Below, piece after piece: positions 13,830 to 29,504 of a stretch of DNA of 64,000 bases. The position numbers were made by a program, and so were the translations under genes. Where the stretch lies: positions 11,602-75,601 of the IMG/VR virus record IMGVR_UViG_3300042340_000194; one strand, written 5' to 3'. This DNA comes from a virus. Numbering within the stretch: the first letter of the stretch is position 1; every line of letters starts with the position of its first letter. Below the pieces are notes generated by a model, which had not been told where the DNA came from, did not search any database, and was given only the letters and a program-made list of their open reading frames with translations.

Positions 13830-14744
13830 TCAGGGTTTGTCCATCGCCATGACGGATCGGGGGAAGTAGATGGCCACACCACCGTGGCGGGCGTGGGCGG
13901 GAACGGTATATTCCAGGCCCTGGAGTTGAGGAGGGAAAAACTCCAGTGGCTGGGGGAGGTGCATCTCCAGCTTGTCCGGGTTACGCTCATAGGTCATGAT
14001 CCGGTCTTTAGACAAGAACCCGCCGGATTTAGAGGCAGTAAGCTCATTGATGGGTTCAATGTCCTTAATAACCTCGTTGGTATCGAGGAAAAACTCCATG
14101 ACAGTGGTGTCCGAAGCCGTCCCGAGCTTCATTGTGGAGATCTTTCGGAACACATTGTACGGAACCAACATGGTGTCTGGTTGTTCTTTCATGTTGCTGT
14201 TCTCGACGATCCGGGTTACCGGTTCATTGAGGAGTTCGAGAACTTCATCGGCGGTGATGCCGGACGTGTCGAACCACTTATCAGGTACGATCTTGTCGAG
14301 TTGATCGGAGTTGAAGAAGCCGCGAAGGCCGGCAGCAGGATCTCCGAAGTAGGAAATGCGCTGCATAGTTTCTTCATAGACGCGACGCACAGCGTTAGCG
14401 CGGCGTTGCTCCAGGTTTGTGTTGGGGACTTCAGCCGCAGCTCGCAGCTCCTGGACGGTGTAGCCAAAGCTGGAACCGTAGGATTCAACCTTGTGGGTTA
14501 CTTCCTTACGGAACACATCAGCGCGGGGGAGATCCTTTGCCTTATCGGCAATTCGCCGCATGGAGCCTTGTTGGTCGTAGATCCTATATGTGTAGGAATC
14601 CTTCCCATTAGACACCTCGCTGTTAATGGGGAGTACACTAGCGTATTTGATGTCGGCATACTCGACTTCAAAAGCCCTAGTGATGATATGCTCAAGTTCC
14701 CTCGCGAGGAAGAAACCGTGGTTGTCGAGGCGTTGGTTGGACAT
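13830..14744 (-). CDS. major capsid protein (DUF2184/encapsulin-like HK97 fold)
   Basis: FLARELEHI, DLPRAD, GYTVQELRAA and GGVAIYFP motifs. Confidence 0.9.
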   Translation of the reverse strand: MSNQRLDNHGFFLARELEHIITRAFEVEYADIKYASVLPINSEVSNGKDSYTYRIYDQQGSMRRIADKAKDLPRADVFRKEVTHKVESYGSSFGYTVQELRAAAEVPNTNLEQRRANAVRRVYEETMQRISYFGDPAAGLRGFFNSDQLDKIVPDKWFDTSGITADEVLELLNEPVTRIVENSNMKEQPDTMLVPYNVFRKISTMKLGTASDTTVMEFFLDTNEVIKDIEPINELTASKSGGFLSKDRIMTYERNPDKLEMHLPQPLEFFPPQLQGLEYTVPAHARHGGVAIYFPRSVMAMDKP

Positions 14745-14816
14745 GGTCAGAGCCTCTCGCGAGGGGAAATAGAAGGAGGGAGGGTTAAGTAGTGGGGGAC
14801 CTGTGATGGTCAGGGA

Positions 14817-15440
14817 TTAGGTGTCGGCGGTGAAGGTCGCGGCGGCCATCTCGATCTCCAAGACAGCCAGGCCAGCCCCGGTGGTCTTGGTGATCCAGCG
14901 GGCACCGTTGGTGAACAGGGTCGTCCGGGTGCCGGAGGCTGTTTTGCAGAACCTTCCCAGGAATGCCCCGGCCACGGTGCCGGAGTGGTCGGTATCCCAG
15001 AACCTGACAGCATCCGTCAGGGCCACGGCCTCGGTGACGTAGACCCAGATTTGGCCCCGGCGGATGACGTTGAGCGACTTCCGGTTGGGGTAGCCAGGCC
15101 GGCCATCGGCGGCCAGGTTGGTCCCTGGGATCCCGGCCGATAGATAGCTGGCATTGCCGGAGGTGACCCCTTCGAATGTGAAGGAATCCGCCAGGATGCC
15201 GAAGTTGCCGGTGACCCCGGTGGAGAGGGTCATGGCGTTATCGTCTCGACCGCCGGCTGTATCTACCTGCACCAAGGCTCCAAACGGCAGCGCCGCGCTG
15301 GTCTGATTGATCCCGGTGAAAGAGTCGTAAGAGTTGAGATTGGCCAGCATCCCTTCATGGGCACCAGCGGAAGTCAGGGGGTATGAACCTTGAACCCCGA
15401 TAGGGGAGGTTACTGTGGTTGGGGTGAAAGTTACAGGCAT
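14817..15440 (-). CDS. capsid decoration/cement protein
   Basis: LPFGALV and LNVIRRGQIWV motifs; between scaffold and capsid genes. Confidence 0.75.
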   Translation of the reverse strand: MPVTFTPTTVTSPIGVQGSYPLTSAGAHEGMLANLNSYDSFTGINQTSAALPFGALVQVDTAGGRDDNAMTLSTGVTGNFGILADSFTFEGVTSGNASYLSAGIPGTNLAADGRPGYPNRKSLNVIRRGQIWVYVTEAVALTDAVRFWDTDHSGTVAGAFLGRFCKTASGTRTTLFTNGARWITKTTGAGLAVLEIEMAAATFTADT

Positions 15441-15488
15441 GGCCGGAGGTGTGAGTAGAGGGGATTAGCCTTTAATAGAAAGCAAGAG

Positions 15489-16799
15489 TCATCGCCTCTT
15501 AGAAGCAGTCAGCGGTTTCTGCCAACTATTGTTGGTTTTTTGCTTGTAGCTATCGGAGGATGCTGCAGCATCGCGCCGTTGAACCCCGCGAAGGGCCGTG
15601 CGCAGCTTGCCGGTGGAATCGGCAGCATCGGTTCGGGGAGCTGGTTCGGCCTCGGGGGGATCTTCGGCATCAAGCGTGGCCAGGGCCCCCTCAACCCGGC
15701 CCCTCATTTGGGCGACTTCCATCTCCTCATCTGGGGCCTCACCGAAGATGTTTTCGTATGCTTGGACATACAACTCATCGGCCTCGATGCCGTCGAAGAC
15801 GAAATCGTCTTCAAAGGCGGGTGCGAGGAGTTGAAGAGTGTCGAGGCGGGCGGCTACTAGGGTGTCCAACCGGGAGGCTGGGATTTGAGCGAGAACCGCG
15901 TCGATGTTGTCTTCATCGAGGTGAATCTCACTGGGTTCCCCGGCATCAATCGTGGCCTGGAGCCCATCGGCCCGCCCTTCGGCGATCTCCTTCTCAGCCT
16001 CCAGGTCGGAAAAATCACTCTGCAGGGTATTTAGCTTTTCCTGCAGAGTGGAATTAGCAGTGCGCAGTTCAGTAAGGGCCTTGCTGGAATCCCTCACATA
16101 GGCTTGCACCAGCGGAGCATATTCAGAGGCAACCTCAACATCGACTCCATCGAGATTGATACGGGCCATAACGGGGTTCGCGGGGGGTACGGGCTCGGGG
16201 GAATCGAGGAGTGCTTGATCAAAAGATACCGCTGCCGTAGAATCCATTCGATCTAACAGCAACCTGACTTCTGGGCCAGCACGTCCTTTAGGGACAATGG
16301 CGATGTGGTTGACGCGGATATTGCGTTGGACACCGTCATAGGACTCGCCTGATGGTGTTTGACCGGGGGTAGGGTCATAATCGACTCGGTAGCCGGCGGA
16401 TACTTCTACAGCGTGATCGGGAGAATCTTTACGTTGGATGTTGTCGATGGATTTTTGGTCAGTGACAAGAAGCGCGACTTCAACAAAACCGTCGCTGAAG
16501 TGGACATGCGAGCCGGCATGCCCGATTTGATACATCTTTGTATTATCCGCATCAAGGAGCTGCGGAGGATGACGCCAAGTAACTGGCTTCATCCCGAAGG
16601 ATGCTAGGGTTTCTGGCTTTCCTACTTCCTCTTCCGGGCGGTACTCAGTTTCGACCCTGCCGTCAGCGCGGCGATATTTCTGGAGGCCAGTGCGGGCGGT
16701 GCGGGCCCGGACCTGGAGGTATCCCGACTCCGGGTCGATCTTGCAGCCGACGATAGGCAGCGAGAGGAAGTCGTATCGGGTAGCTGTTGCTAGGCTCAT
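15489..16799 (-). CDS. DUF2213 prohead protease/scaffold
   Basis: GYL..ARTGLQKY, YRPEEEV, EVSAGY, NIRVNHIAIVPKGRAGPEVRL; acidic coiled-coil C-terminus. Confidence 0.9.
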   Translation of the reverse strand: MSLATATRYDFLSLPIVGCKIDPESGYLQVRARTARTGLQKYRRADGRVETEYRPEEEVGKPETLASFGMKPVTWRHPPQLLDADNTKMYQIGHAGSHVHFSDGFVEVALLVTDQKSIDNIQRKDSPDHAVEVSAGYRVDYDPTPGQTPSGESYDGVQRNIRVNHIAIVPKGRAGPEVRLLLDRMDSTAAVSFDQALLDSPEPVPPANPVMARINLDGVDVEVASEYAPLVQAYVRDSSKALTELRTANSTLQEKLNTLQSDFSDLEAEKEIAEGRADGLQATIDAGEPSEIHLDEDNIDAVLAQIPASRLDTLVAARLDTLQLLAPAFEDDFVFDGIEADELYVQAYENIFGEAPDEEMEVAQMRGRVEGALATLDAEDPPEAEPAPRTDAADSTGKLRTALRGVQRRDAAASSDSYKQKTNNSWQKPLTASKRR

Positions 16800-16835
16800 G
16801 CACCAGTTTACGGCTGGCGTTTAGGGGTAATCAGC

Positions 16836-17885
16836 CTAGTAGCTTTTTAACAAAGCGGTCTCTAAACTTCTGTAATAACCTTTTACAACTTTGTCTACGT
16901 GATCGGTTTCATAAGTGCGCAGCGCGTTTTCTAGAGGATCCCATTGAGGAGCCCAACGCCTTTCAAATGTTTCTACTGCGTATTCTGATAAACCTACGCG
17001 GCGTGGTACTTGAGTAAGCTCGTTGATGAAATCGCGGGCGCTAGTTCGATTTTCTGTAGCGAACTCAGCTAGGCCGAAGTCGATGAATTTAAGGCTTCTG
17101 GTTTTTGGGTTAAACATTATGTTTTTTAAGTGCCCATCGTTGTGTACGAGACCACTAATGTGTAAAGAGCGATAGAGGTCTAACATTTGGCGTTTTAACT
17201 GTAGTGGTGCGGTGTATTTAAGCGAGAAAATACTAGAACTTACCCCATGCGTAGATAAAGGGGAATAATTGTTCAAGTGCTCCATGACCAATACCCGGTC
17301 AGTAGCTTTGTATAGCTGAGGGGATGGCACATTATTGATGTTAGCGTGCCTTAGTATCTCACCTTCAGGGAGTAAGCTTTCTGTGGGGCCGCTCAGGAAT
17401 TTATTAGGTGTCCCCCCGAGGTCGTTGTTCTTTAAGTATTTTATACCGTATTTATTAGACGGGTGGACAACATAATTACCGTAAGCACCTTGGCCCCCTA
17501 GACATCGTGGAGTCGGAACAAAGTCATCTTCTCTAATCCAGTGATCAATCTTGGATGCTGCACATGCAATTGCGTTGGCTTTCTTGTTATCTTCAAAGAC
17601 ATCCCACTGTTTGCCGCGCTTCCGCGCCTCAGCTTCGATCCGATCCCAGTCCTCACCAGGGGCGGTGAATCCCTTCCAATCGGGGTCGCGGCGAACGAAA
17701 CGGCGGGCGGCGGAGATGCCTAGGGCTGCGATCCCGGCCCCAAGGGCGACTTTGCCGATCAGGCTCGGGGTGATTGTTGGATTAGAACTGGGCGCAGTGG
17801 TCTTTTTGGAGCATTTCTTGTTGTCTGGTATGCCTGACGCACCGCATTTTTTGTCGAATCTTAGTGAAGCGGTGGTTATGGGCAT
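16836..17885 (-). CDS. protein-kinase-like effector with N-terminal RxD-Cys motif and hydrophobic helix
   Basis: GGQGAYG loop, IKY lysine, LVMEHL, HNDGHLKNIM, IDFG. Confidence 0.8.
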   Translation of the reverse strand: MPITTASLRFDKKCGASGIPDNKKCSKKTTAPSSNPTITPSLIGKVALGAGIAALGISAARRFVRRDPDWKGFTAPGEDWDRIEAEARKRGKQWDVFEDNKKANAIACAASKIDHWIREDDFVPTPRCLGGQGAYGNYVVHPSNKYGIKYLKNNDLGGTPNKFLSGPTESLLPEGEILRHANINNVPSPQLYKATDRVLVMEHLNNYSPLSTHGVSSSIFSLKYTAPLQLKRQMLDLYRSLHISGLVHNDGHLKNIMFNPKTRSLKFIDFGLAEFATENRTSARDFINELTQVPRRVGLSEYAVETFERRWAPQWDPLENALRTYETDHVDKVVKGYYRSLETALLKSY

Positions 17886-17939
17886 GATTACCGGTGGTAT
17901 GTATGCTATTCTAGCGAGGCACCTGCGTGGACACTTGTC

Positions 17940-18413
17940 TTGGGTTTTATGGATAGAGAGACTCTGGTCAAGCTAAATGGCGATGTGGCGCAGTTAAAAG
18001 GTATTATGCAGCCTTTTAATGATGCTGCCGCTCAGGCCAATAAAGGTTTTATTGAGCTTGGGCGTACTCTGAACTTAGAGGCCCAACGGCGCAATGCCAT
18101 CTTGCGAGCATTGTTTTATTCATCGGTCAAGGCCGCATCACCTACTATTGGGCGTAAACGTCGCGCCCGCAGGGCTAGGGGAAGGCGGCTAGAGGTCAAG
18201 GCAGGAAATAAAACCAATAACGAGTTTCAGTCATACGACAGTGTCTGTCCTCCGATTAGTTCAAACCATATTGCGATCAGCGAAGATGGCGAACTCAGTT
18301 TTGTTTACCGTGCTCATATTGAGCACACATCAGGAGTGACTCCTGATGGGTCAGAATATAAGGCCATTGTAAGATCAATAAAACCAATCAGTGCTAGGAT
18401 TAAGGCGTTATGA
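17940..18413 (+). CDS. hypothetical protein with Arg-rich motif
   Basis: First gene of a plus-strand cassette with overlapping stop/start junctions. Confidence 0.55.
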   Translation: MGFMDRETLVKLNGDVAQLKGIMQPFNDAAAQANKGFIELGRTLNLEAQRRNAILRALFYSSVKAASPTIGRKRRARRARGRRLEVKAGNKTNNEFQSYDSVCPPISSNHIAISEDGELSFVYRAHIEHTSGVTPDGSEYKAIVRSIKPISARIKAL

Positions 18414-18679
18414 TATCCCCACTCCTCATGATAGACTTTGTAACCGTACAAACCACTGTAGCATTTGAGTTGTACATGGACGAACCCGCTGGTGGGTCTA
18501 GCCTAGAGGATCTAAATACTAGGATCTTAGTATTTAGAGAGAAGCTTATCGAGATTTATGGTTGCAATCCTGCAATTCTACGTGTAGTGGAACACCCTTT
18601 CTGGATACTTAATCCAGTGGCGGATCAGCCATTTAATCTAGTTAAACCACGCTCTTATTTTTCAAACTGCCATGTTTAA
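18410..18679 (+). CDS. hypothetical protein
   Basis: ATGA overlap with the upstream gene. Confidence 0.5.
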   Translation: MISPLLMIDFVTVQTTVAFELYMDEPAGGSSLEDLNTRILVFREKLIEIYGCNPAILRVVEHPFWILNPVADQPFNLVKPRSYFSNCHV

Positions 18680-19013
18680 GGACGACCTAGGGATAAACAT
18701 ACAAAATGCTGCTTGCAGTACTACAGGCATGACTGCTGATGAAATGCTTGAACTACTAAATGAGCCGGTTACGCGCATCGTAGAGAACTTTAACATGAGG
18801 GAGAAACTGGACACTATATTGCTCGATTCTAAGCAGTTTGCGTCTATATTATCTGAACGCACCAAGGCGGCAATGAATCGCGTCTATCACAATACGAGAC
18901 CTAACTATCTACCTATCTTTGTTAACGCCTCCCCCACTATTGGACGTAAACGCCGCAACCGTCGCGCTCGGGGGCGTAAACTAGCAGCTAATCGCCAAAA
19001 AGCTTGTGCTTAA
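18672..19013 (+). CDS. hypothetical protein containing a major-capsid-derived segment and Arg-rich motif
   Basis: TADEMLELLNEPVTRIVEN matches capsid TADEVLELLNEPVTRIVEN. Confidence 0.65.
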   Translation: MFKDDLGINIQNAACSTTGMTADEMLELLNEPVTRIVENFNMREKLDTILLDSKQFASILSERTKAAMNRVYHNTRPNYLPIFVNASPTIGRKRRNRRARGRKLAANRQKACA

Positions 19014-19611
19014 GAACGACATCTGGATAGGACAGCAAGCTGCCGCTGGGATGATCGAGCCCTATCAGGAATGTCTGTTGCGCCGCATTGAAACCTGGGA
19101 GGATAGCATTCTACAAGTAAAGCCGGTGTTGTCTTTTGGTGTTAGCAGTTATGGCTATGACATCCGGCTGTCGGCTCAGGAATTTATGACCTTCCGCCAT
19201 GTCCCTGGCACGGTGATGAACCCCAAGCGGGCCAATCCCGCCAACCTGGAGCCGGCCCCTCTCCATCAGGACGAGGATGGGCGCTACTTCATCCTGCCGG
19301 CGCATACCTACGGCCTCGGGGTAGCTCTGGAGAAATTGCGGGTGCCGCCGAATATCACTGTGATCTGCTTGGGGAAAAGCACTTACGCCCGGTTGGGGAT
19401 CATTGTGAATACCACGCCGGCAGAAGCGGCATGGGAGGGGCACCTAACCCTGGAGTTCAGTAATTCTTCTGGTGCTGATTGCCGTATTTATGCCGAAGAG
19501 GGTATCTGCCAACTGCTTTTCTTTGAGGGGGATCCCTGTGAAACTACTTATGCGGATCGGAATGGTAAATATCAATATCAGCCGGAACTGGTGACATTAG
19601 CAAGGGTTTGA
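19006..19611 (+). CDS. dcd: dCTP deaminase
   Basis: SSYGYDIRL, GKSTYARLG, TPAEAAWEGHLTLEFSN, YADRNGKYQYQ; picocyanobacterial type. Confidence 0.95.
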   Translation: MLKNDIWIGQQAAAGMIEPYQECLLRRIETWEDSILQVKPVLSFGVSSYGYDIRLSAQEFMTFRHVPGTVMNPKRANPANLEPAPLHQDEDGRYFILPAHTYGLGVALEKLRVPPNITVICLGKSTYARLGIIVNTTPAEAAWEGHLTLEFSNSSGADCRIYAEEGICQLLFFEGDPCETTYADRNGKYQYQPELVTLARV

Positions 19612-19641
19612 TTCTTACTTTATTGTGAAACATAATTAAGG

Positions 19642-20532
19642 CTATCGCAGCCGATTTCCCACACGTCTTGTCAGGCGGGGCGCATTACCTAAGTACCTAT
19701 CCCAGAACTTGTTGTAGGCTTGCTGTGTGGGAGCGTTTTTAGTAAGCCCGGTCTCCTTGATCAGATCAGAGAATTTCCTATGTTCTATAGGATCTAGTTT
19801 ATTCAGCATGTAGTTAATGTGGTCCATATCATTGCGTAGACCTGAAGTAGGCATGAATTTGATCGGCTTGGCGTAGCCCCAGTCGATCAATTTAACATCG
19901 CCATCCTTGACCATAACATTACCCAGGTGCATGTCTCCATGTGCGTACCCGGCCTTATGCAGCTTCGACATCTCTAAGACAAACTGCTTCGCGTAGCGGG
20001 CCTTCTCCTGCTTGGTTCCGCTTTCTACGATTTTGGTTAAGTTCTTGTACCCGTCCATGTACTCGATTTGAGTTATAGATCGCGCCGAATCGACAGCTAG
20101 GACATTCGGAGTGTTGATGCCCTTATCGTGTAGTTTGGCCTGCAGCGTGACTTCACGCAGGAACTGTCGCCGCCCGACAAGGGTTTTCTTGAAGTTTGTC
20201 TTGAAGACTGATTTACGATCCGGGGAGACGTGAATGGCCCCGGCATAACCTTTGGCTAGGAACTTACTACCTTTGGGGAGATTTTGCGGAGTTGATAATG
20301 CAATAGCTTCCTTGAAGGCACGTTCAATTGCAGGAGTCCATCTTCTCCTGTTGAGCACTCCTACAAGAACGACTCCTGTAGCTACGGCTGCGGTGGTTGT
20401 TCTCGGGGTTATGATACCTCCTGAGCTGCTTGCAGGGGCTACGCTTTTTCCACACTTCTTGTTCGCTGCAATGCCGGATTTCCCGCACTTCTTATCCAGG
20501 CGCAGCCGCGCTGCGGTCAGTTGCAATTCCAT
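19642..20532 (-). CDS. second protein-kinase-like effector (RIO/Bud32-like) with RxD-Cys motif and hydrophobic helix
   Basis: AKGYAG loop, VFK, REV, EYMDG, HGDMHLGNVM, LIDWG. Confidence 0.85.
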   Translation of the reverse strand: MELQLTAARLRLDKKCGKSGIAANKKCGKSVAPASSSGGIITPRTTTAAVATGVVLVGVLNRRRWTPAIERAFKEAIALSTPQNLPKGSKFLAKGYAGAIHVSPDRKSVFKTNFKKTLVGRRQFLREVTLQAKLHDKGINTPNVLAVDSARSITQIEYMDGYKNLTKIVESGTKQEKARYAKQFVLEMSKLHKAGYAHGDMHLGNVMVKDGDVKLIDWGYAKPIKFMPTSGLRNDMDHINYMLNKLDPIEHRKFSDLIKETGLTKNAPTQQAYNKFWDRYLGNAPRLTRRVGNRLR

Positions 20533-20843
20533 TTCCGTAACGACTTATTGATCCGTGAATCCTGGTTATTAGCGGTTTTCGCGCTGGTTAGCTTACGCTT
20601 CATTCCCGACATGCGGGCACAGAACCTCCGTCGTCTTTCTGCTCTCGCTGATCCGGGTTTGAGCTTGGAGGGGTCGGTCGTTACCGCGAGGGAGAGCTTC
20701 GAGCCTGGATGTTGCTTGCGGTAGGAGGCGATGCCTGCGGCGTTAAGGCCGCCCTCGGGGTTTTTGCCTTCCTTGCGCTGCCAAGCGGGGGATTTGTCAA
20801 GGCGGATGGTTAGAGGTGTGAGTAGTCCCACCTCAGTTACCAC
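20517..20843 (-). CDS. conserved basic phage protein (DUF6321-like)
   Basis: AWQRKEGKNPEGGLN..RRRFCARMSG..SLRKWNC recalled from cyanophage proteins; preceded by RLD. Confidence 0.6.
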   Translation of the reverse strand: MVTEVGLLTPLTIRLDKSPAWQRKEGKNPEGGLNAAGIASYRKQHPGSKLSLAVTTDPSKLKPGSARAERRRRFCARMSGMKRKLTSAKTANNQDSRINKSLRKWNCN

Positions 20844-21669
20844 TAAAGAGCCTGCGCTTCTGCCTAATCAGCCCGATTTGGGTTTTACGCGCAGCGCGGC
20901 GTGTTGAAGCAACCCCAGCTTGGGCTTTAGCCATTGTTGTAGATACTGCAGCTTTTGTCGCCTTCCGTACTCTCGCTTTAGATGGAGGTATAGCGCCTTG
21001 AGACAACATCCCCCGAGCTTGTTTGTTATTCATAGACCGTGCCATACTGGCTTGTGAGTTGCTAACTTGATTTGTCCATGGGTCTGGAATGCCACCAGCG
21101 GAATTGGTAGGGCGAGGATTGGACATGCGGCTAGTCACACGTAAGTTTTTCGCAACTCTTAGGTTAGACATAGCATTTTTCTGCATTCCTCGATATTTCA
21201 TAGCACCCACTGTACCTGCAGCAATACTACCAGCAACGGCGGCTACTTTAAGGCCGGTCTGGACGTTTTCATTACCAAGGGAGGATTTTACAGTACCGAC
21301 TAAGCCTTTAGTACACTTTTTGCCTTCAGCAATGCCGGAAGCACCGCACTTCTTGTCCTCTCTTACACTCAACACACCACGGATATAATTCTTACTGTGT
21401 TTATTGATTCCAAGTTCACAAGCATCAAGATATTCCATAGGAGTAAGTACAGCGTCCATTGCTGCTTTAGCTGCGCAGCCACAAGAGCCACTCTTCTTAC
21501 CCTTCTTCATGCAAGCGGCACAAGGCTTCTTACCTTTCCCGTGGGGGGCATCACCGTACTCGGGGGACTCTCCCTCCTCCATCTTCGAAGACTCCATTCC
21601 TTTCCCCGCAGCGCTGCCCTCGGCGGCCTTTTTACGACCCTTTTTAAGGAATGCTGCGGGGATCGGCAT
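20833..21669 (-). CDS. basic protein with internal RxD-Cys motif and hydrophobic helix
   Basis: REDKKCGASGIAEGKKC followed by VAAVAGSIAAGTVGA; K/R-rich tail. Confidence 0.7.
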   Translation of the reverse strand: MPIPAAFLKKGRKKAAEGSAAGKGMESSKMEEGESPEYGDAPHGKGKKPCAACMKKGKKSGSCGCAAKAAMDAVLTPMEYLDACELGINKHSKNYIRGVLSVREDKKCGASGIAEGKKCTKGLVGTVKSSLGNENVQTGLKVAAVAGSIAAGTVGAMKYRGMQKNAMSNLRVAKNLRVTSRMSNPRPTNSAGGIPDPWTNQVSNSQASMARSMNNKQARGMLSQGAIPPSKARVRKATKAAVSTTMAKAQAGVASTRRAARKTQIGLIRQKRRLFSGN

Positions 21670-21701
21670 GGCCTGGGTAGATAGGGATTCTCCCCCTCAG
21701 G

Positions 21702-22280
21702 TTACCGTTGAGGCACAGCCGGCAAGATTCTATGCACCCAGGCCCTCTTTAGGTTGTAATCAGGTCGGCGATCGTACCATTGAGCAGCGTCCCAAACACT
21801 CACGCTGGGCATGCACGCAGCATAGATGGTTTTATCGGAATAAAACCCGTCGTAGAATGTGGACTTGGGGTTGTTATAGGTCCAGCTAGGGCCGTCGAAC
21901 TCCGACCAAGGATCTTTGACATTGAAGGCATAAGTGGCGTCCGCTTTCAGTTTCACACCATCGAGAGCAATAACATGCCCAGATCCGGTGAAATAGCCGT
22001 GAGTGATGAGAAACTCACCAGCTTTTAGATAACCAACAATGTCATTGAGCGAAGCGGTGTTGTTGTAGATATACCGGTCACCGATATAACCACGAATTAC
22101 TTTGCCCATGTTGGTAGTATCCCCCGCCGCACCAGGCAGGCGGTTCAATTTACGACGAACACCTAGCACGTCTTTATCACCTACCGCCATCGCAATGCAG
22201 GCGGACTGACATGTAGAAGCGTCAGGCTGGGAGAGGTTGAGTGCGTGGACTGTTGTTTTCCACTCTTGACTGATGATCAT
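21702..22280 (-). CDS. C39-like cysteine peptidase, candidate endolysin
   Basis: Q..TCQSACIAM, GHVIAL and KDPW (Cys-His-Asp); next to a two-helix membrane protein. Confidence 0.65.
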   Translation of the reverse strand: MIISQEWKTTVHALNLSQPDASTCQSACIAMAVGDKDVLGVRRKLNRLPGAAGDTTNMGKVIRGYIGDRYIYNNTASLNDIVGYLKAGEFLITHGYFTGSGHVIALDGVKLKADATYAFNVKDPWSEFDGPSWTYNNPKSTFYDGFYSDKTIYAACMPSVSVWDAAQWYDRRPDYNLKRAWVHRILPAVPQR

Positions 22281-22328
22281 GACGATAATTAAGGATAAAG
22301 AGAGAAAAAGGGAGAGGTGGATGTGTGA

Positions 22329-22580
22329 TTAAGTGACCTCGTCCTCCTCACGAGGTTTGCGAAGAGCTGGGTTATATGTATTAAAACCATTCACGAAGCC
22401 AGCCTTCTCAGCCATACTTTTCATAAAAGGAACTCCCATAATAGAGCCACTGACAATCCAACAGCTAGGCCACCCACCAGGCAGGGTGGGGGAATGTTCG
22501 CAACGGATTAGAAAACCTACGCCGAATATAACTGTGGCTACGACAGGAACAGTCAACACCTTTGGCCAGCGTATTTGCAT
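22329..22580 (-). CDS. small membrane protein, candidate holin
   Basis: Two hydrophobic segments and charged C-terminus; likely start MQIRWPK. Confidence 0.45.
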   Translation of the reverse strand: MQIRWPKVLTVPVVATVIFGVGFLIRCEHSPTLPGGWPSCWIVSGSIMGVPFMKSMAEKAGFVNGFNTYNPALRKPREEDEVT

Positions 22581-22599
22581 TTTGATTGGGTGTGGCACT

Positions 22600-25500
22600 T
22601 TAGTTAGAGGAAGTGGCGGGCTCGGGGGGAACTGTCTTAGCTCCGGTGGCATTCTGCTGTACTTCAGCTCGCAGGGATTTACTACTACGCTTTACCTTGT
22701 TAGGATCGTAACCTCCGTACCATACATCAATCATACGATCTTCAATTTCTGAGCGTAGTTGAAGTAGTGCTTGCTGCTTATTTGTGCTAAGAGCTTTGAT
22801 ATACCGACTTTTAACATCTCTACTTTTATTACCAAATAAAACTTGTAGATCACCCTCTATTGGTTTATCGCTGGCTATACGCCATACCATTTCATTAGTC
22901 AACTCCTTTGAGCGGGCACGGTCCACTGTTAAATAACTGTGTGCCTCTTTCTGTAACTGCTTATCTAATAAATAACTATCACCAGCCTTAAAGTATTTTC
23001 TCCAGTTAGCCCCAAACTCTGGGTTATTAGGATCAATTTTTTCGCTAAGTCCATGAGGAATATTATTATTCTGTAACATGCGCACCGGACTGCTAGCGAA
23101 CGCACGTTTACCCATAGTTGCGTAAAACACATCTCCTTTGCTGACCCATGTTCGCATATTCTCATCTGTATGATTAAACACCCCGAAAGTGGGGCCTGCT
23201 ACATTAACAACTTTGACATCTCTATAACCCATTTCGGCTAGAATAGCTAATGTTTCCGACGCCACATTTCCCCCATTGCTGTAGGCTAGCATGTGGACAG
23301 GCTTGCCGGTTAACCGCCGTTGTGCTGCGACAAAAGCTGCTGCACGTACTGCATCAGGATTAAACCCACGAGTTTCTATATTACCTCGCAAATAATCCAT
23401 CTGCTTAAACGCATTCTTCATCTCTATACCCATAGTAACCGGCTTCTGAGCTACTTTAGGGAGCATACCTATGCGGGCTTTCCGCGTCTTCATGTCTAGA
23501 TCGTCGGCACCTTGCTTAATAGGTTGGGAGATTTTGTTAGCAAAAGGGAGTATATCATGCTCGCCCCAGATCTCCCGAAAAGCTCCACCTTCAGCCATCA
23601 AATGACTACCTTGACCACGCTTAGTAAAAGTACCATCGTCTGCATAAGAAAGCATGACCACTGCGCCTTTGCTATTCTGTGTTTGCCCGTAAAATGCTGG
23701 GGTATTGTCCATACCACTAAACCCAGTATCATATCCTTTATCTTTGAAGTTGTAAGTAGATGCTTCAAACGGAGTAACGTCTTTGACATCCTTACCTAAA
23801 CGCTTCGCCGCTTTTTCGTTAAACTCGCGCACCATATCCTTAGCCATAGCCTCGGCGTCTATAGCAGATCTGGACACATTTCTCCTATAGGCGAATACCT
23901 GCTGAGATTTCACCCCGAGTGCGAGCCCTACGGCTGTGGCAGCCACTGCTCCAGCACCGATAGCCACATTACGGAGAGTATTGTCCTTATCTTTTGGGAT
24001 TGCTGCAGATTGCCCACCTCCGCCAGAAGCGGCTTGAGCGGCCAATGTTTTCTTAGAGCAGTTCCTATTATCAGGAATACCGGATTTACCGCAGCGCTTG
24101 TCCTGCCTAATAGTCGCAGCGAAAGCCTGGAAATAAGCATCACCGCGCTCGGGGGGCTTTCTTGCTTCCATGCGGCGGCGCTGGATTACTACGCGGGCAG
24201 CCGCCTCCGCTGACTTCTGGTTTTTATATAAAGGCTTGCCATTAGGCAATGTCCTATCCATTAGGGCTTTAAGCACGTCTAGATAAGACTGCTGCTCCTC
24301 TACATTAGTAAATTTGAAACTCTCCCTAGCCCGTCGAGGACGGTTCATCGGAGGTATCGGCGGAATAGCTCTACCGGTACGTGTGTTTAGCTCATTAGGG
24401 GGTCTTATTTGAAGCCCTTCGAATGCACCGGTCCCCCTGAGTATTGTCAAAGCTTCGGAAGGGTCTTTGATCGGCCTACCTGCGTGCTCTGAGGCAGCCT
24501 TTTGGATAGTCAGGCTCGGGGCAGACCATATCGTATTGACACTGGCGGGAAAGCCATTAGTTTGGAAATAATGCTGGTTAACTAGATCCGCAGAGTATGG
24601 GCCTTTAACCGCCTGCCTACCTGCTGTAGGGTAGAGCCGCGTAGCAAAGAACTCCGCATGCCCCTGCATCGCGTTCTGCATTACTGGGTATTGGTCTAGA
24701 GGTACGGATTTCCTTAAGCCTGTTGGCCCATAGACTTTAGGTAAAGAGTTAATAATAGACTCGTAGAAAGTATCATAGCTTGAGATTGTCTTACCATAGA
24801 TAGTTCTTGCTGTGCCAATTGCTCGGAAATTGGGGTGCAGCGTACCTAGGAGCTGGCTACGGGCTTGTTCTCTGGCTGCTGGGGTTAGCTGTTGAGCATC
24901 GAGCAGCGTGTTAGCTAAGCTATGGCGATCTTCTAATTTACCTAGGTTAAAGCCCCGGTCTTTCGCGTAATTAGTCAACGTTTTATGCTCAGCATCCAAT
25001 TGATCTGCGATCTGCTGCACCAGCTTCACGCCTGACACTTCAGCCCCGCCAGTCACCTTGTAATGAGTTCTGAGGAAATCCTCCCCCGAGAGCGTCGCGA
25101 ATTGATAACCGTCACCGACTCTATAGATTTGCTGCTCTTTCAAGCGTGGCGTGCTCCACATCGCTTTGTATGAGGCTTTATGCCACTCACCAAAGTCTGT
25201 GTAGGCGCTAGGACTTACATTTTTAACCCGCTGGCCGACAGCCGAAAATGGGGAATAGTCTAAAGGACTGGTTTTAAGAATATCAGAAGTATCGGGTAAT
25301 CCGTAGTTTCTACCAGCTACTGCTCCTACGCCATTGCGACGGCGCACTAATTCAGCGACAGCATTACGAGCTTCAGTTTTGGTACGCGCACGCGCCGGAT
25401 GTAGATCTAGCACCGAATGCAGTGCATTACTTACACTGTCATCAATGTTTTTACCAATACCTTCCCTGTAGCTGCGGATATTGCTTAAGATGCCGTGGGC

Positions 25501-25914
25501 ACGAACTCCTCCCCCGAGTACGGCAAGAGCTACACCGATGCCTATAGACCCTTGAACTAGAGCAGCTTGTAGTTCTTTTTTCTTCTTAAGATCTTGAGGG
25601 GATGCTTTAACAGCACCGCGAATGACGGCTTTTCTACCGCCTTCTAATTCTGAGAAGTTACCAGTAGTTATGCCTTTTCTAAGGCGACCGAGCCCTCTTT
25701 GTGTGCTGGCGAGTGCAGCTAATGGATCACTACCTCTTCCCGCAGCTTTTAAATGTCCATCACCGCCTTCCCCCTTTAGCCGGCAATCCCATTCAGGAGG
25801 AATGCAGCGAGATCCACAACGCCGATTAGGCGGCTTACACGCAATGGTGTTTCGAGTCTTAGCGTCGATCCTCGATTGAGTAATCAGGAAAGTAGCCGTA
25901 CGAATGTTGGTCAT
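22600..25914 (-). CDS. 1104 aa putative polyprotein: two Cys-motif/helix units and a C-terminal alpha/beta hydrolase
   Basis: N-terminal RID..CKPPNRRCGSRCIPPEWDC; internal RQDKRCGKSGIPDNRNC; VHMLAYSNGG nucleophile elbow; occupies the usual MuF position after portal. Confidence 0.75.
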   Translation of the reverse strand: MTNIRTATFLITQSRIDAKTRNTIACKPPNRRCGSRCIPPEWDCRLKGEGGDGHLKAAGRGSDPLAALASTQRGLGRLRKGITTGNFSELEGGRKAVIRGAVKASPQDLKKKKELQAALVQGSIGIGVALAVLGGGVRAHGILSNIRSYREGIGKNIDDSVSNALHSVLDLHPARARTKTEARNAVAELVRRRNGVGAVAGRNYGLPDTSDILKTSPLDYSPFSAVGQRVKNVSPSAYTDFGEWHKASYKAMWSTPRLKEQQIYRVGDGYQFATLSGEDFLRTHYKVTGGAEVSGVKLVQQIADQLDAEHKTLTNYAKDRGFNLGKLEDRHSLANTLLDAQQLTPAAREQARSQLLGTLHPNFRAIGTARTIYGKTISSYDTFYESIINSLPKVYGPTGLRKSVPLDQYPVMQNAMQGHAEFFATRLYPTAGRQAVKGPYSADLVNQHYFQTNGFPASVNTIWSAPSLTIQKAASEHAGRPIKDPSEALTILRGTGAFEGLQIRPPNELNTRTGRAIPPIPPMNRPRRARESFKFTNVEEQQSYLDVLKALMDRTLPNGKPLYKNQKSAEAAARVVIQRRRMEARKPPERGDAYFQAFAATIRQDKRCGKSGIPDNRNCSKKTLAAQAASGGGGQSAAIPKDKDNTLRNVAIGAGAVAATAVGLALGVKSQQVFAYRRNVSRSAIDAEAMAKDMVREFNEKAAKRLGKDVKDVTPFEASTYNFKDKGYDTGFSGMDNTPAFYGQTQNSKGAVVMLSYADDGTFTKRGQGSHLMAEGGAFREIWGEHDILPFANKISQPIKQGADDLDMKTRKARIGMLPKVAQKPVTMGIEMKNAFKQMDYLRGNIETRGFNPDAVRAAAFVAAQRRLTGKPVHMLAYSNGGNVASETLAILAEMGYRDVKVVNVAGPTFGVFNHTDENMRTWVSKGDVFYATMGKRAFASSPVRMLQNNNIPHGLSEKIDPNNPEFGANWRKYFKAGDSYLLDKQLQKEAHSYLTVDRARSKELTNEMVWRIASDKPIEGDLQVLFGNKSRDVKSRYIKALSTNKQQALLQLRSEIEDRMIDVWYGGYDPNKVKRSSKSLRAEVQQNATGAKTVPPEPATSSN

Positions 25915-27776
25915 TTAACGTCCTCGGGGGCGGGCTTGAGCGTGAAGATCGTCTGCTCGGGTAGAAAAGCCGCTAAGCCTTTCCTAGCAGCCCGGAGCGA
26001 GGCATAGCCAGTAACCTGCGGGCCAGGGAGGATCGCCCCATCGAGCTTAATGGTGGAGTTGAGCAGGGCATAGCGCCGGGATCGGCTGGGCCCGAGCAAC
26101 ACCAGGCCGCCAATATCCGGGCCTGTTGCGTCGTTCCGGGTAGTGGTCCCCACCGGATAGCCCAGGCTGGCGCCGTCTTGATGCTTGATCACGTCGATGG
26201 TCAAGCCCAGAGCCTCGTAGCTGTCGGTCTTGGGCGCGGGCTTCGCCGGTTGAGACTCTTGAGACGCAGGTTGAGACTGGCCAGGGACCTCGCCGCCCTC
26301 GGGGGGAATCGGCTGGCCGTCTGGTCCTAAACCCTGCGCCTGGAATGCTTGTGCTTGTAACTGATTCATATTGTTCTCAAACATGCTATCCTCTTGCATT
26401 TGTAGCTGGGCAGATACGTTCTCGTCCAGCACAGTCTCAATACTGTATTCCGCTGAGCCGTAGCGATTATTTCTAATTTCTATAGGACTTAGCACTCTTA
26501 ATGCTGCATAAATATTGTCTATTTCAGCTCTGGACTTCTGTACAGCGAGCTTCTCCGTGGCGGTCTCAACGAACACCGAGGGGAACGAAATTTCCCACGA
26601 TTCTGGTGGGGTGCCCCGCATGGGACTGTCCTTGGCCCGCATGAAAAGCTCAAAAATATCGGAAATAGGGTCTTGGCAATAGACAGTCTGCCAGTCCTCT
26701 ACTAGAGAGGCCCATACTCGCTCTTCAAACCGCCCTTCTTTCCCGAGGCCGCCAGGACTGGTGCCCATTAGAATTGACGCAGGCCAACCAGTAGTAGCCT
26801 GCATGTACTCAGCAAAAGGTGCGGTGGCTTGCGCCATGTTACTGAGGGATCTTTCAGCAAAGCCTATCTCTTCATTCGCGTCTATTAAGAATCCTCCATA
26901 GGAGGATCTAGACATGTTGTTTATTTCCATGCGTTTCATCACCTGATTAGCGTTACCGGCTCTCACCATCTCCATTAACCCTGGCACTTTATGCCAAAAC
27001 AAAGAAGAGTCTGTAACACTAGAAGATAATCCTCTAATGGACGTTTCATACAGTTTCCATGAATCCCATACTACTTGTAATGGTGCTTGGCCCCAGCCTT
27101 GTTGTTGTTGGCGCTGTCGCCAGGGTAGGTACAGTCCATCAAAGCGGCTAACTCTAGTGTGATGGATACGCATATTTGTTACAGGGCTTTTCTGGTTCTC
27201 GTCTAATTTTTGATTAGTAGTAATTCTGTACATCTCGGGTTTGGAGTAGTCCATAACGGACACGTCCATGGGAAATATTTCGTGGCGTGATAACGCACAC
27301 AGCCCACGAATACCACGAATGCGGTCGTAGTTTACAGGTGTTTCCGGGTCTTCGTTGCCATCATCAACTAGAGCGACAATGACCGATCCGCCGTAGAGGC
27401 GTTGAAGGCGGACAGCTTCGGCATACACCCGGTGGAATTTCAACTGTTTAAGGTAGGCTTCAAAATCTGTGATCTGGTCAATCTCTTGGGAAGCTTTCCG
27501 GCCTCCTAGTTTAATTGTGACACGATGTTTGAGAACTTCATCGGCAATAGAATCGACAAAACGCCGGGGTAGTCCTACGGAGTAAAGAGCTTCGAGTTCT
27601 GGATGAGAGAGTAGATAGCTAGTCCGTATGCTTGTTGATTGGCTTCGGTCTTTACCTGCTATTCCCATGCCTGTAAAGGCATTGACTAAAGCTCCATCTG
27701 TACGCATGCCATCAGCATCGCTACGATTGCCGATAGCGACGGAATTATCGGGAGCTTCGGGAGATACTGATTTCAA
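25911..27776 (-). CDS. portal protein (DUF1073 type) with C-terminal extension
   Basis: RLYGGS, IHHTRV, LMGTSPGGL, WEISFPS motifs; follows terminase. Confidence 0.9.
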   Translation of the reverse strand: MKSVSPEAPDNSVAIGNRSDADGMRTDGALVNAFTGMGIAGKDRSQSTSIRTSYLLSHPELEALYSVGLPRRFVDSIADEVLKHRVTIKLGGRKASQEIDQITDFEAYLKQLKFHRVYAEAVRLQRLYGGSVIVALVDDGNEDPETPVNYDRIRGIRGLCALSRHEIFPMDVSVMDYSKPEMYRITTNQKLDENQKSPVTNMRIHHTRVSRFDGLYLPWRQRQQQQGWGQAPLQVVWDSWKLYETSIRGLSSSVTDSSLFWHKVPGLMEMVRAGNANQVMKRMEINNMSRSSYGGFLIDANEEIGFAERSLSNMAQATAPFAEYMQATTGWPASILMGTSPGGLGKEGRFEERVWASLVEDWQTVYCQDPISDIFELFMRAKDSPMRGTPPESWEISFPSVFVETATEKLAVQKSRAEIDNIYAALRVLSPIEIRNNRYGSAEYSIETVLDENVSAQLQMQEDSMFENNMNQLQAQAFQAQGLGPDGQPIPPEGGEVPGQSQPASQESQPAKPAPKTDSYEALGLTIDVIKHQDGASLGYPVGTTTRNDATGPDIGGLVLLGPSRSRRYALLNSTIKLDGAILPGPQVTGYASLRAARKGLAAFLPEQTIFTLKPAPEDVK

Positions 27777-28007: not shown

Positions 28008-29504
28008 TCAGGCCGCCTTGAGGAAGCCCAGGAGATCGACGGATCCGGGGGCCGCCATGGCTGCCAGAGCCACACCCATCACCGTGTCATCGTGGGCCGA
28101 CCCCCCTGCCCCCCGCTTTCCGTGGTCATCCCGGCGGAATGCTCGATGCTCAGCAGCAATGATCCCATCAGGGAATATTAGGTCATCATCCTCCATCATA
28201 AAGAGAGTTCTGTCGGTTATTGCGTTTTTGATGGGATCAGACATATAGACTAGCTCTATTTCAGTCCCCATGGATTGCAGTGCAAGCGCCTCCGCTATGA
28301 CAATGCCCATGGAGTTCTTCTCTACTATGATTTTAGAAGGTAGAAAATTCTCTATCAACTCTTTTACTTTGGCTAAGCTGTACGGGGAGGATTTGTAGTG
28401 TTCCCGATACATGGCTGCCACGCGCCGTGGTTTAGAGGTTACGTCAAGCACTACAGCGGTGAAGTAGTCATTACCTCCTCCGTTGGGATCCACTCCCATG
28501 GAGTAGATGCGGTTTGCCATACCGCATTCATCGAAGGAACCTTTAGCACATTTTTTGACTAACAGGCTGTCATATATGGCAGATGCGGTAGCACCGAATT
28601 TAAGCTCAAATTCCGCCGCCCATTGGTTTAGTGTTAGCTTCTCTTGTTTTCTATAAGTTGCTGGCCAGGTAGGATCTGCACCATACTGTGGGTGCATTGA
28701 GTAATGAAGCGCTACCCGTGCCCATCCGTCCGCTTCCCCGGCTTTGTTTAGAAGGGCTTGAAGGCCTATTAGATCACGACGTTCTACATAGTCATACCAG
28801 TCGGAGGGGAGGCCCGTTGTCCACATTTCGCCGAACCAGTCTGACTCCATGTCTGGAGTAGAGACTATGATCACTTTCCCGGCTTTGCCTAACTTCATCA
28901 GTGAAGGGCTGGCTCCTTGATATAAATCTTTTACTCCGTCGATAAAGGCGGCTTCGTCGAGGAAGAGTACAGAACAGGCTGGGATACCACGAACGCCCCG
29001 ACCTGTAGGAGCTAAGAAATGTAGAGTGCCTCGCCCTTTCCAGGATAGCCGCTTAGTGCTATCCGATAGCCATGTTAATGACTCACCTTGGAGGGATTCC
29101 GCCATGAAGCGGACCCGTATAGCTAGCTCCTCGGAGTCCTTGCCTGTTTTTGAGACAATTACGGCAGTAAAGCCGGGTTCTGTTAATGCCCTGTTTAATA
29201 GATAATTACAGATAACTTCCGATATGCCGATCTGCCTAGATTTGAGGACTTGAATCCGGCGAGAATTGTGGAGTATGCGTACAAATTCTTTCTGAAATTC
29301 ATACGGCGCAAAGGGTTCAATCTTGGCACCGTCATCGTCACCAGTTTTGATCCAAGTAAGCGGCGCGAACTCCTCCCAGTTCTTTACAGGAGGTAACGAA
29401 GTTAGTAGCTTTGCACTGGCGTGATTAGCTGCTGCAGCTTCGCGCTGAGCTACCTTCTTCTCCAGTTGAGCCAGACGAGATTTGAGTGACGCTCCGGTTC
29501 TCAC
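28008..29504 (-). CDS. terL: terminase large subunit
   Basis: LKSRQIGIS Walker A, LFLDEAAF Walker B, VSTP, GVDP and HDDTV nuclease acidic residues. Confidence 0.95.
   Translation of the reverse strand: MRTGASLKSRLAQLEKKVAQREAAAANHASAKLLTSLPPVKNWEEFAPLTWIKTGDDDGAKIEPFAPYEFQKEFVRILHNSRRIQVLKSRQIGISEVICNYLLNRALTEPGFTAVIVSKTGKDSEELAIRVRFMAESLQGESLTWLSDSTKRLSWKGRGTLHFLAPTGRGVRGIPACSVLFLDEAAFIDGVKDLYQGASPSLMKLGKAGKVIIVSTPDMESDWFGEMWTTGLPSDWYDYVERRDLIGLQALLNKAGEADGWARVALHYSMHPQYGADPTWPATYRKQEKLTLNQWAAEFELKFGATASAIYDSLLVKKCAKGSFDECGMANRIYSMGVDPNGGGNDYFTAVVLDVTSKPRRVAAMYREHYKSSPYSLAKVKELIENFLPSKIIVEKNSMGIVIAEALALQSMGTEIELVYMSDPIKNAITDRTLFMMEDDDLIFPDGIIAAEHRAFRRDDHGKRGAGGSAHDDTVMGVALAAMAAPGSVDLLGFLKAA

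Follow-up and report, generated by a model that had tools for sequence, protein, structure and literature searches.

Arg-x-Asp as a probable cleavage signal of the DUF2213 prohead protease in a cyanophage head module

The DUF2213 prohead protease encoded in the head module of a siphophage-like cyanophage probably cuts its substrates after the tripeptide Arg-x-Asp (RxD). The module lies within a window of 64,000 nucleotides (IMG/VR record IMGVR_UViG_3300042340_000194, positions 11,602 to 75,601), which represents most of the phage genome, and extends on the minus strand from TerL to the major capsid protein (MCP), with four small plus-strand open reading frames (ORFs) inside it. According to the proposed rule, the 436 amino acid (aa) product, a putative prohead serine protease that is fused to the scaffold and would be active inside the assembled prohead, would recognise Asp at P1 and a basic residue at P3 (Arg in this phage), P2 being free, with the cut falling after the Asp and preferably before Ala, Ser or Gly. 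Every cleavage assigned to the window phage is inferred from motif statistics, conservation, covariation, the protease fold and the Edman-sequenced terminus of one homologous capsid protein.

The closest named relative of the window phage is Synechococcus phage S-CBS4, with 52% identity in the MCP and 37% in the protease-scaffold protein. Because the sole match in a DNA-level search was 160 bases of S-CBS4, comparison was made at the protein level. Scanning IMG/VR with the protease-scaffold sequence gave 80 loci with identities of 99% to 32%; related loci carry L numbers, S-CBS4 being L081 and phage TLS L084. Expected RxD counts were calculated throughout from the composition of each protein itself.

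The N-terminal domain of the 436 aa protein matches PF09979 (DUF2213) with an E-value of 7.4e-44 (150 bits against a cut-off of 22, profile positions 5-164 of 167) and the head maturation protease family phrog_530 with an E-value of 3e-69. An AlphaFold2 (AF2) model of residues 1-195 (pLDDT 84, pTM 0.80) was matched by Foldseek to T4 gp21 (5JBL; E = 4e-5, probability 1.0), and comparison by VIA gave a Z score of 14.4 and a root-mean-square deviation of 2.4 over 144 of 164 residues with the same structure, and Z scores of 4.7-6.7 with herpesvirus proteases; as modelled, the domain has the fold of T4 gp21 and herpesvirus assemblin. His77, Ser134 and His165, which are invariant across 20 diverse homologs, are candidate catalytic residues, and the order His-Ser-His is that of the assemblin triad. 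A full-text literature search for published specificity returned no statement of a cleavage motif for DUF2213.

The enrichment of RxD is most pronounced in the scaffold that follows the protease domain. In the window phage, residues 179-436 contain six copies against 1.8 expected. Among 14 IMG/VR representatives with mutual identity below 60%, the whole protease-scaffold protein contains 119 copies against 36.3 expected (P = 2e-27), RxD ranking first of 1,600 dipeptides with gaps of 0-3, and the part behind the protease contains 74 against 17.7 (P = 2e-23). The proteins of L057-L068 match only residues 1-212 of the query, and their unalignable tails still hold 14-15 copies. To avoid circularity, a profile was then built from the protease domain only and used to search 1.84 billion cluster representatives, which returned 16,063 relatives at E-values up to 0.001. 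Tail statistics cover 135 of the 150 top-ranking cluster representatives, namely those in which the domain is followed by 120 residues or more. These tails contain 799 RxD against 224 expected (P = 6e-194), the first of all dipeptides with gaps of 0-2, and 104 of the 135 tails have four or more copies; KxD ranks second, with 391 against 244. Immediately behind the Asp, Ala (300 against 136 expected), Ser (124 against 44) and Gly (95 against 42) are enriched and Lys (35 against 63) is depleted, while Leu, Phe, Met, Ile and Ala are preferred between Arg and Asp. Over-representation of one short motif in the scaffold is as found in the motif-directed maturation of the T4 and phiKZ type. In the proposed mechanism the protease would free itself from the scaffold at DRMD186, and the scaffold would be chopped at five further RxD to peptides small enough to exit the shell; cuts at all six sites would leave scaffold pieces of 92, 34, 8, 71, 19 and 26 residues.

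Conservation of RxD extends to the proteins of the shell. MCP homologs down to 36% identity retain the motif at a distance of 2-6 residues upstream of the first conserved helix, in the variants IRND, TRLD, FRMD, HRMD and QRLD, and in MCP ORFs with a 50-residue extension it is found at the end of that extension; the motif closes propeptides of variable length. Cleavage of both scaffold and MCP at RxD is considered highly likely, and the capsid protein would lose seven residues (after RLD7). The portals of the RxD clade all retain RxD followed by Gly, adjoining the conserved G-[AV]-L-x-N..T-G-[ML]-G, and those of the motif-less clades have xxD followed by Gly. Cleavage at the portal N-terminus is reasonably likely and would remove approximately 20-27 residues (after RSD20 and/or RTD27), with the C-terminal extension possibly being clipped at KTD518 and RND549. 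Across ten related loci, RxD within 25 residues of the N-terminus is a feature of 41 of the 77 ORFs lying between portal and MCP and of 7 of 123 elsewhere (P = 2e-14). The cement protein serves as an internal negative control, with no N-terminal RxD in the window phage or in the N-termini of 36 homologs; in the Pam3 structure the cement protein binds to the outside of the expanded shell (PMC9942802). A separate observation concerns the S-CBS4 portal (L081, 7300-9180), the C-terminal extension of which includes, at approximately residues 490-505, the stretch TMDEAGLYLSRDLEH. This closely resembles the start of the N-arm of the phage's own MCP, FRMDEAGLFLERQLEY, and the portal tail may therefore carry an MCP-like peptide, as judged from the two sequences.

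Further evidence comes from phages in which the P3 letter differs. TLS encodes a PF09979 protease and a PF09950 MCP, and the T1-like phages share both families. In their protease-scaffold proteins KxD is the top motif, with 13 copies against 3.3 expected in TLS and 12 against 3.5 in Rogue1. Their MCP propeptides contain KND or KAD followed by Ala, and their portal N-termini have KED followed by Gly or KAD followed by Ser, an equivalence judged by eye and not by alignment. In two other lineages, one comprising L073, L078 and L080 and the other L077, which have zero to two scaffold RxD, the basic residue is missing in scaffold, MCP and portal, and the Asp is kept. The P3 letter therefore shifts jointly in all substrates, as expected if one enzyme reads P3. 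Within the protease, Glu52 is invariant in 19 sequences (17 from R-type and two from K-type phages) and gives way to Leu, Ile or Val in the six sequences whose phages lack a basic P3, which makes it a candidate for the residue that reads the P3 letter, as a lead only given that phylogeny is uncontrolled in this comparison.

Experimental evidence from a homolog is available for TLS, in which the N-terminus of the mature MCP was established by Edman sequencing as ASDMGIW (PMC11447400). This corresponds to residue 33 onward of the annotated TLS MCP (15072-16061), immediately after R-G-A-K-N-D, and is no more than two alignment positions from the site proposed for the MCP of the window phage. Since the terminus follows K-N-D, a phage of the DUF2213 type cuts its PF09950 capsid protein after basic-x-Asp and before Ala. 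The authors of the TLS study surmised removal of 45 residues from an alignment (PMC11447400), which is at odds with their own Edman sequence. A second KxD (KYD) is present at residues 11-13 of the TLS MCP. N-terminal tryptic peptides of the Rogue1 MCP were missing in mass spectrometry (PMC3496638).

The motifs on which the initial annotation had built the same proposal all exist, each at its place on the minus strand. They occur near the N-termini of the MCP (QRLD 4-7), protease (TRYD 7-10), portal (RSD 18, RTD 25), DUF6321 protein (RLD 14) and two kinase-like proteins (RFD 9 and RLD 11), and at domain borders, i.e. DRMD 183-186 between protease and scaffold and RAD 276, RLD 310, RLD 318, RTD 389 and RRD 408 in the scaffold. 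Also found were KTD 516 and RND 547 in the portal tail, RED 118 in a kinase, and RGD 590 and RQD 603 in a protein of 1104 aa, which has RID 15 in addition; RED occurs at residue 103 of a 278 aa protein. The comparison of head with non-head proteins that had been suggested as a check gave a result in the expected direction, with 28 RxD in the head module against 15.0 expected (P = 0.0018, first of 400 AxB motifs) and 46 against 50.4 in the 82 remaining ORFs. The motif is present in the first 20 residues of seven of ten head-module proteins and of two of the 82 others (Fisher P = 5e-7), although these seven are not independent, because four share a homologous leader. Pure chance and pure composition were both rejected as the source of RxD on the enrichment statistics of window and family.

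Several results weigh against the proposed rule. Enrichment within the window only is modest: the head-module P value is lost after correction for 400 tests, the bulk of the excess comes from the protease-scaffold protein (10 copies against 2.8 expected, shuffle P ~1e-4), the module without this protein holds 18 against 12.2 (P = 0.07), and the 1104 aa protein shows no enrichment at all (three against 4.4). The signal is overwhelming only once relatives are added, and kinship among those sequences inflates some of the P values, an effect that clustering at 50-60% identity lowers and does not remove. Pam3 and phiPLPE, which are DUF2213 phages also, show no enrichment of RxD or KxD. The basic-residue rule at P3 is therefore lineage-specific, Arg or Lys at P3 across the whole DUF2213 family being rejected on these two phages, and from the sequences compared only Asp at P1 looks general within the family. 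The paper describing the Pam3 structure makes no mention of a protease or of cleavage (PMC9942802). Finally, the motif alone does not define a cut, because RxD at protease residues 8, 44, 123 and 138 and in LPRAD at MCP residue 74 occupies conserved positions of the respective folds.

These last positions are also an argument for regarding RxD as a structural or interaction motif and not as a cleavage site, for example as a charge pair that binds scaffold, MCP N-arm and portal together in the prohead, and scaffold proteins are indeed rich in charged residues. Such a reading is nevertheless improbable. Expectations were derived from each protein's own composition, yet the P value of RxD leads those of all other dipeptides by over 150 orders of magnitude; a strong preference for Ala, Ser or Gly in the position following the Asp is what protease sites typically show; the cut in the homologous capsid protein of TLS falls precisely behind K-N-D; and a structural role sits poorly with a motif that closes MCP propeptides of differing lengths. 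For the copies within the protease, on the other hand, a role other than that of substrate is preferred. Of 150 protease family representatives, 132 have RxD within their first 16 residues, the N-terminal R-[YF]-D remains Arg in the K-x-D phages TLS and Rogue1, and protease residues 4-9, overlapping the RYD, form a strand in the AF2 prediction. The N-terminal RYD is probably a structural or regulatory element and no ordinary substrate site, and RYD 8-10 and RxD 44, 123 and 138 were rejected as substrate sites since they are conserved fold positions and, in the case of the N-terminal copy, Arg is kept in the K-x-D phages. Cleavage after RxD by the DUF2213 protease has strong though indirect support in scaffold-tail enrichment, N-terminal conservation in MCP and portal, the joint switch from Arg to Lys and the TLS cut after K-N-D, but the N-terminal copy and the three inside the protease fold are unlikely to be cut.

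Attribution of the cuts to an enzyme other than the DUF2213 protease, either a host protease or the 192 aa C39-like cysteine peptidase encoded at 21702-22280, is very improbable. The 192 aa protein does lie within the head module and matches Peptidase_C39_2 weakly, at an E-value of 0.021 that falls short of the curated cut-off; Cys24/Cys28 and His102 form plausible motifs, and the protein is possibly a second peptidase of the head module. However, C39 enzymes have their cleavage site behind Gly-Gly, the motif goes together with the DUF2213 gene in 135 clusters, and the 192 aa gene is restricted to the closest relatives. The complete portal-to-protease intervals of L010, L011, L028, L033 and L051 lack this gene and yet keep both RxD sites and the Cys-rich tags described below, and for this reason it was rejected as the RxD enzyme. 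In the annotated TLS and Rogue1 records, the DUF2213 head maturation protease is the sole protein to bear the name of a protease; these T1-like loci were not searched for the 192 aa protein and are not evidence on it.

Between portal and protease, RxD is associated with a conserved tag block, R-x-D-K-[KR]-C-G-x-S-G-I-x4-K-C, followed some 20 residues on by a Gly/Ala-rich hydrophobic helix. Carriers are both kinase-like proteins, the 278 aa protein (residue 103) and the 1104 aa protein (residue 603). A second tag type, C-x7-C-x3-C-x7-C, opens the N-terminal unit of the 1104 aa protein behind RID and Ala, and is conserved at the N-termini of its homologs in L033, L039 and L051 (ALRGD then AKAQRAC...). 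Among 32 distinct tags from related loci, Arg stands at -2 in 31 and Lys follows the Asp in all 32, the residue between Arg and Asp is variable and the upstream sequence is unconserved. Tags occur once or twice per ORF, either internally or at the N-terminus behind a short leader, often LTPxxLRxD; the DUF6321 protein has a similar, conserved leader that lacks the Cys tag. They also mark fusion boundaries between modules. Near-identical relatives encode the C-terminal unit of the 278 aa protein as an ORF of its own, which starts with leader, RFD and tag. The N-terminal unit of the 1104 aa protein occurs alone in L007 (610 aa) and L026 (626 aa) or with other partners, and in L010, where RGD 590 is kept, and in L020 the tag is the exact start of its C-terminal unit; neither half has a Pfam match at E-values up to 5. 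The RED that precedes the core of the 349 aa kinase aligns with K-F-D followed by Ala in distant homologs and is lost in the close homolog of L010.

In the proposed mechanism, where RxD precedes every tag of the KKCG type between portal and protease (on two kinases, the 278 aa protein and both halves of the 1104 aa protein), the tagged proteins would also be cut, a step rated there as the likelier outcome; short leaders would be removed and tag-led units freed from fusions, as T4 and phiKZ-like phages do with internal and ejected proteins. Considered as a claim in its own right, cleavage at the RxD before KKCG tags, including the splitting of the 1104 aa protein as a polyprotein that the initial annotation had envisaged, is plausible and close to an even call on the sequence comparisons described. 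The competing view is a mixed one in which RxD is cut in scaffold, MCP and portal, but in the tags forms only the first part of an address motif (R.DKKCG.SGI....KC plus the hydrophobic helix), with the 1104 aa and 278 aa proteins staying whole; this is a serious possibility that falls somewhat short of even. Lys after the Asp in 32 of 32 tags contrasts with its depletion at scaffold RxD, and the R-x-D of the tags may therefore belong to the tag's own structure, a point that counts against cleavage at these sites, as does conservation of the tag as a single block from the Arg to the second Cys. Fusion boundaries at tags are to be expected of any shuffled module, and fit release by cleavage and simple module shuffling equally. 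The mixed view is less easily reconciled with the residue between Arg and Asp being as variable in tags as in scaffolds, everything after the Asp being fixed, or with N-terminal tags that never begin at Met and always have a leader of at least three residues plus RxD. Nor would it lead one to expect an LTPxx-RxD leader on a DUF6321 protein without a Cys tag, or RxD followed by Ala before a second, unrelated four-Cys tag. Furthermore, the position after the Asp is tolerant, because MCP sites have Asn, Asp or Glu there, which are rare at this position in scaffolds also.

If the tagged proteins are indeed cut, a further proposal is that R-x-D is the release signal of capsid-loaded effectors, whereby the kinases, the two-unit protein and other cargo, synthesised behind a leader or as fusions, would be packed in the prohead, cut by the DUF2213 protease and ejected into the host, every unit with a KKCG start and its own hydrophobic helix, and Glu52 would set the P3 preference and co-evolve with the substrates. 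This is a tentative idea, and more doubtful than cleavage at the tags as such. Coordinates of all features are listed in the table.

Table 1. Features of the cyanophage head module, numbered by position in the window
Feature	Coordinates	Strand	Match or remark
TerL	28008-29504	-	
Portal, 621 aa, TTG start as called	25911-27776	-	PF06381, E 7e-53
Portal RSD 18-20, second upstream site	27717-27725	-	retained in closer relatives only
Portal RTD 25-27	27696-27704	-	directly before conserved G-A-L-V-N..T-G-M-G
Portal KTD 516-518, after low-complexity linker	26223-26231	-	[AS]K[TQ]D[SAE] in portals to ~40% identity
Portal RND 547-549, C-terminal extra domain	26130-26138	-	aligned R-x-D in portals to 34% identity
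1104 aa two-unit protein	22600-25914	-	no Pfam/PHROG family match
1104 aa protein RID 15-17, N unit start, with four-Cys tag variant	25864-25872	-	
Second Cys-rich tag type, C-x7-C-x3-C-x7-C, 1104 aa protein residues 15-48	25770-25872	-	preceded by RID then A
1104 aa protein RGD 590-592	24139-24147	-	
1104 aa protein RQD 603-605	24100-24108	-	opens second KRCG tag and C unit
192 aa protein	21702-22280	-	weak C39-like peptidase match
278 aa protein, internal tag	20833-21669	-	
278 aa protein RED 103-105, then KKCG	21355-21363	-	
DUF6321 protein, 108 aa	20517-20843	-	PF19846, E 4e-17
DUF6321 protein RLD 14-16, LTPLTI-RLD leader	20796-20804	-	
296 aa kinase-like protein	19642-20532	-	Pkinase and RIO1 matches
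296 aa kinase RLD 11-13, leader and KKCG tag	20494-20502	-	
Four small ORFs	17940-19611	+	
349 aa kinase-like protein	16836-17885	-	Pkinase, E 7e-8
349 aa kinase RFD 9-11, leader, KKCG tag and hydrophobic helix	17853-17861	-	
349 aa kinase RED 118-120 (WIRED)	17526-17534	-	before kinase core
DUF2213 protease fused to scaffold, 436 aa	15489-16799	-	
DUF2213 prohead protease domain, residues 1-186	16242-16799	-	PF09979
Protease RYD 8-10, N-terminus	16770-16778	-	
Protease Glu52 codon	16644-16646	-	candidate P3-binding/specificity-pocket residue
RMD 184-186, protease/scaffold border	16242-16250	-	LLLDRMD[AS] or LR[LM]D in most homologs
Scaffold domain, residues 187-436	15489-16241	-	fused to protease
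Scaffold RAD 276-278 (EGRAD then G)	15966-15974	-	aligned RxD in many homologs, e.g. AEGRADAL
Scaffold RLD 310-312	15864-15872	-	
Scaffold RLD 318-320	15840-15848	-	
Scaffold RTD 389-391	15627-15635	-	
Scaffold RRD 408-410	15570-15578	-	
Cement (decoration) protein	14817-15440	-	PF22758, E 5e-18
MCP, 304 aa	13830-14744	-	PF09950, E 3e-51; phrog_264
MCP RLD 5-7	14724-14732	-	proposed cut after Asp7, new N-terminus Asn8

The plus-strand ORFs within the module have features of their own. The product of the 113 aa ORF (18672-19013) contains approximately 30 residues that are near-identical to MCP residues ~160-195, including LELLNEPVTRIVEN, and the end of the 157 aa product (17940-18413) resembles the protease core (NHIA...TPDGSEY). 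Both have the basic motif SPTIGRKRR.RRARGR in common, and are possibly decoys or regulators. The 201 aa ORF (19006-19611), which lies midway through the head module in the opposite orientation, appears by eye to encode a dCTP deaminase-like protein.

The DUF2213 family of phage head proteases is large, with the 16,063 relatives noted above and more than 1,400 deposited phage genomes that include T1-like, Klebsiella and Vibrio phages and cyanophages. Basic-x-Asp before a small residue would allow annotators to predict mature capsid, portal and scaffold products, would point to neighbouring genes whose proteins enter the prohead, and corrects at least one published inference, that for phage TLS. 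Asp-specific cleavage is uncommon among serine proteases, and the joint switch between Arg, Lys and no basic residue, on the side of the enzyme as well as of its substrates, provides a clean model of how protease specificity co-evolves. Sensing of prohead protease activity by bacterial defence systems has been reported (bioRxiv 10.64898/2026.03.04.709575), and the motif makes this idea testable for the DUF2213 family. Should the tagged kinases and the 1104 aa protein prove to be processed cargo, the module would provide a compact model of capsid-delivered effectors outside the jumbo phages.

The principle that a prohead protease motif marks scaffold, MCP, portal and internal proteins is classic in T4 and phiKZ-like phages, and what is distinctive here is the Asp at P1, the size of the family, the covariation of enzyme and substrates and the possible link to tagged cargo. 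T4 gp21, of MEROPS family S77, cuts after L/I-x-E, making many cuts in the scaffold core, trimming the N-terminus of the MCP and removing short N-terminal targeting peptides from internal proteins. The window protease has the same fold according to its model (Z 14.4, rmsd 2.4, 144 residues) and a proposed rule of the same form, with three residues, a free P2 and an acidic P1. It differs in having Asp and not Glu at P1 and Arg or Lys and not Leu or Ile at P3, in approximately 10% sequence identity, in its fusion to the scaffold, and in an MCP that would lose only about seven residues. The phiKZ-like proteases prefer a small residue at P3. In SPN3US (gp245) and phiKZ (gp175) the motif-defined head substrates include MCP, portal and ejected proteins, propeptides are cut at several copies of the motif, and the enzyme cleaves itself, with numbered sites such as E-124 and ARE-12 (PMC10052503). 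Unlike those of the window phage, these sites end in Glu, most propeptides are long (111-254 residues), and no Cys-rich tag follows the site. The proposed R/K-x-D rule thus belongs with the L/I-x-E of T4 and the Glu sites of SPN3US as a three-residue code of one kind, written in other letters. Closest of all are the T1-like phages TLS and Rogue1, which have the same protease and MCP families in the same gene order, an MCP cut right before its N-arm (by Edman sequencing) and scaffold tails full of basic-x-Asp before Ala, Gly or Ser; they differ in Lys at P3, in an MCP propeptide of approximately 32 residues and in the absence of tagged kinases or a polyprotein, and the motif is unstated in the TLS paper. 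In herpesvirus assemblin, protease and scaffold form one chain and are separated by self-cleavage, much as is proposed here for DRMD186. The fold is related (Z 4.7-6.7) and His, Ser and His are invariant in the same order, but assemblin belongs to an animal virus, is very distant in sequence and cuts at Ala|Ser sites.

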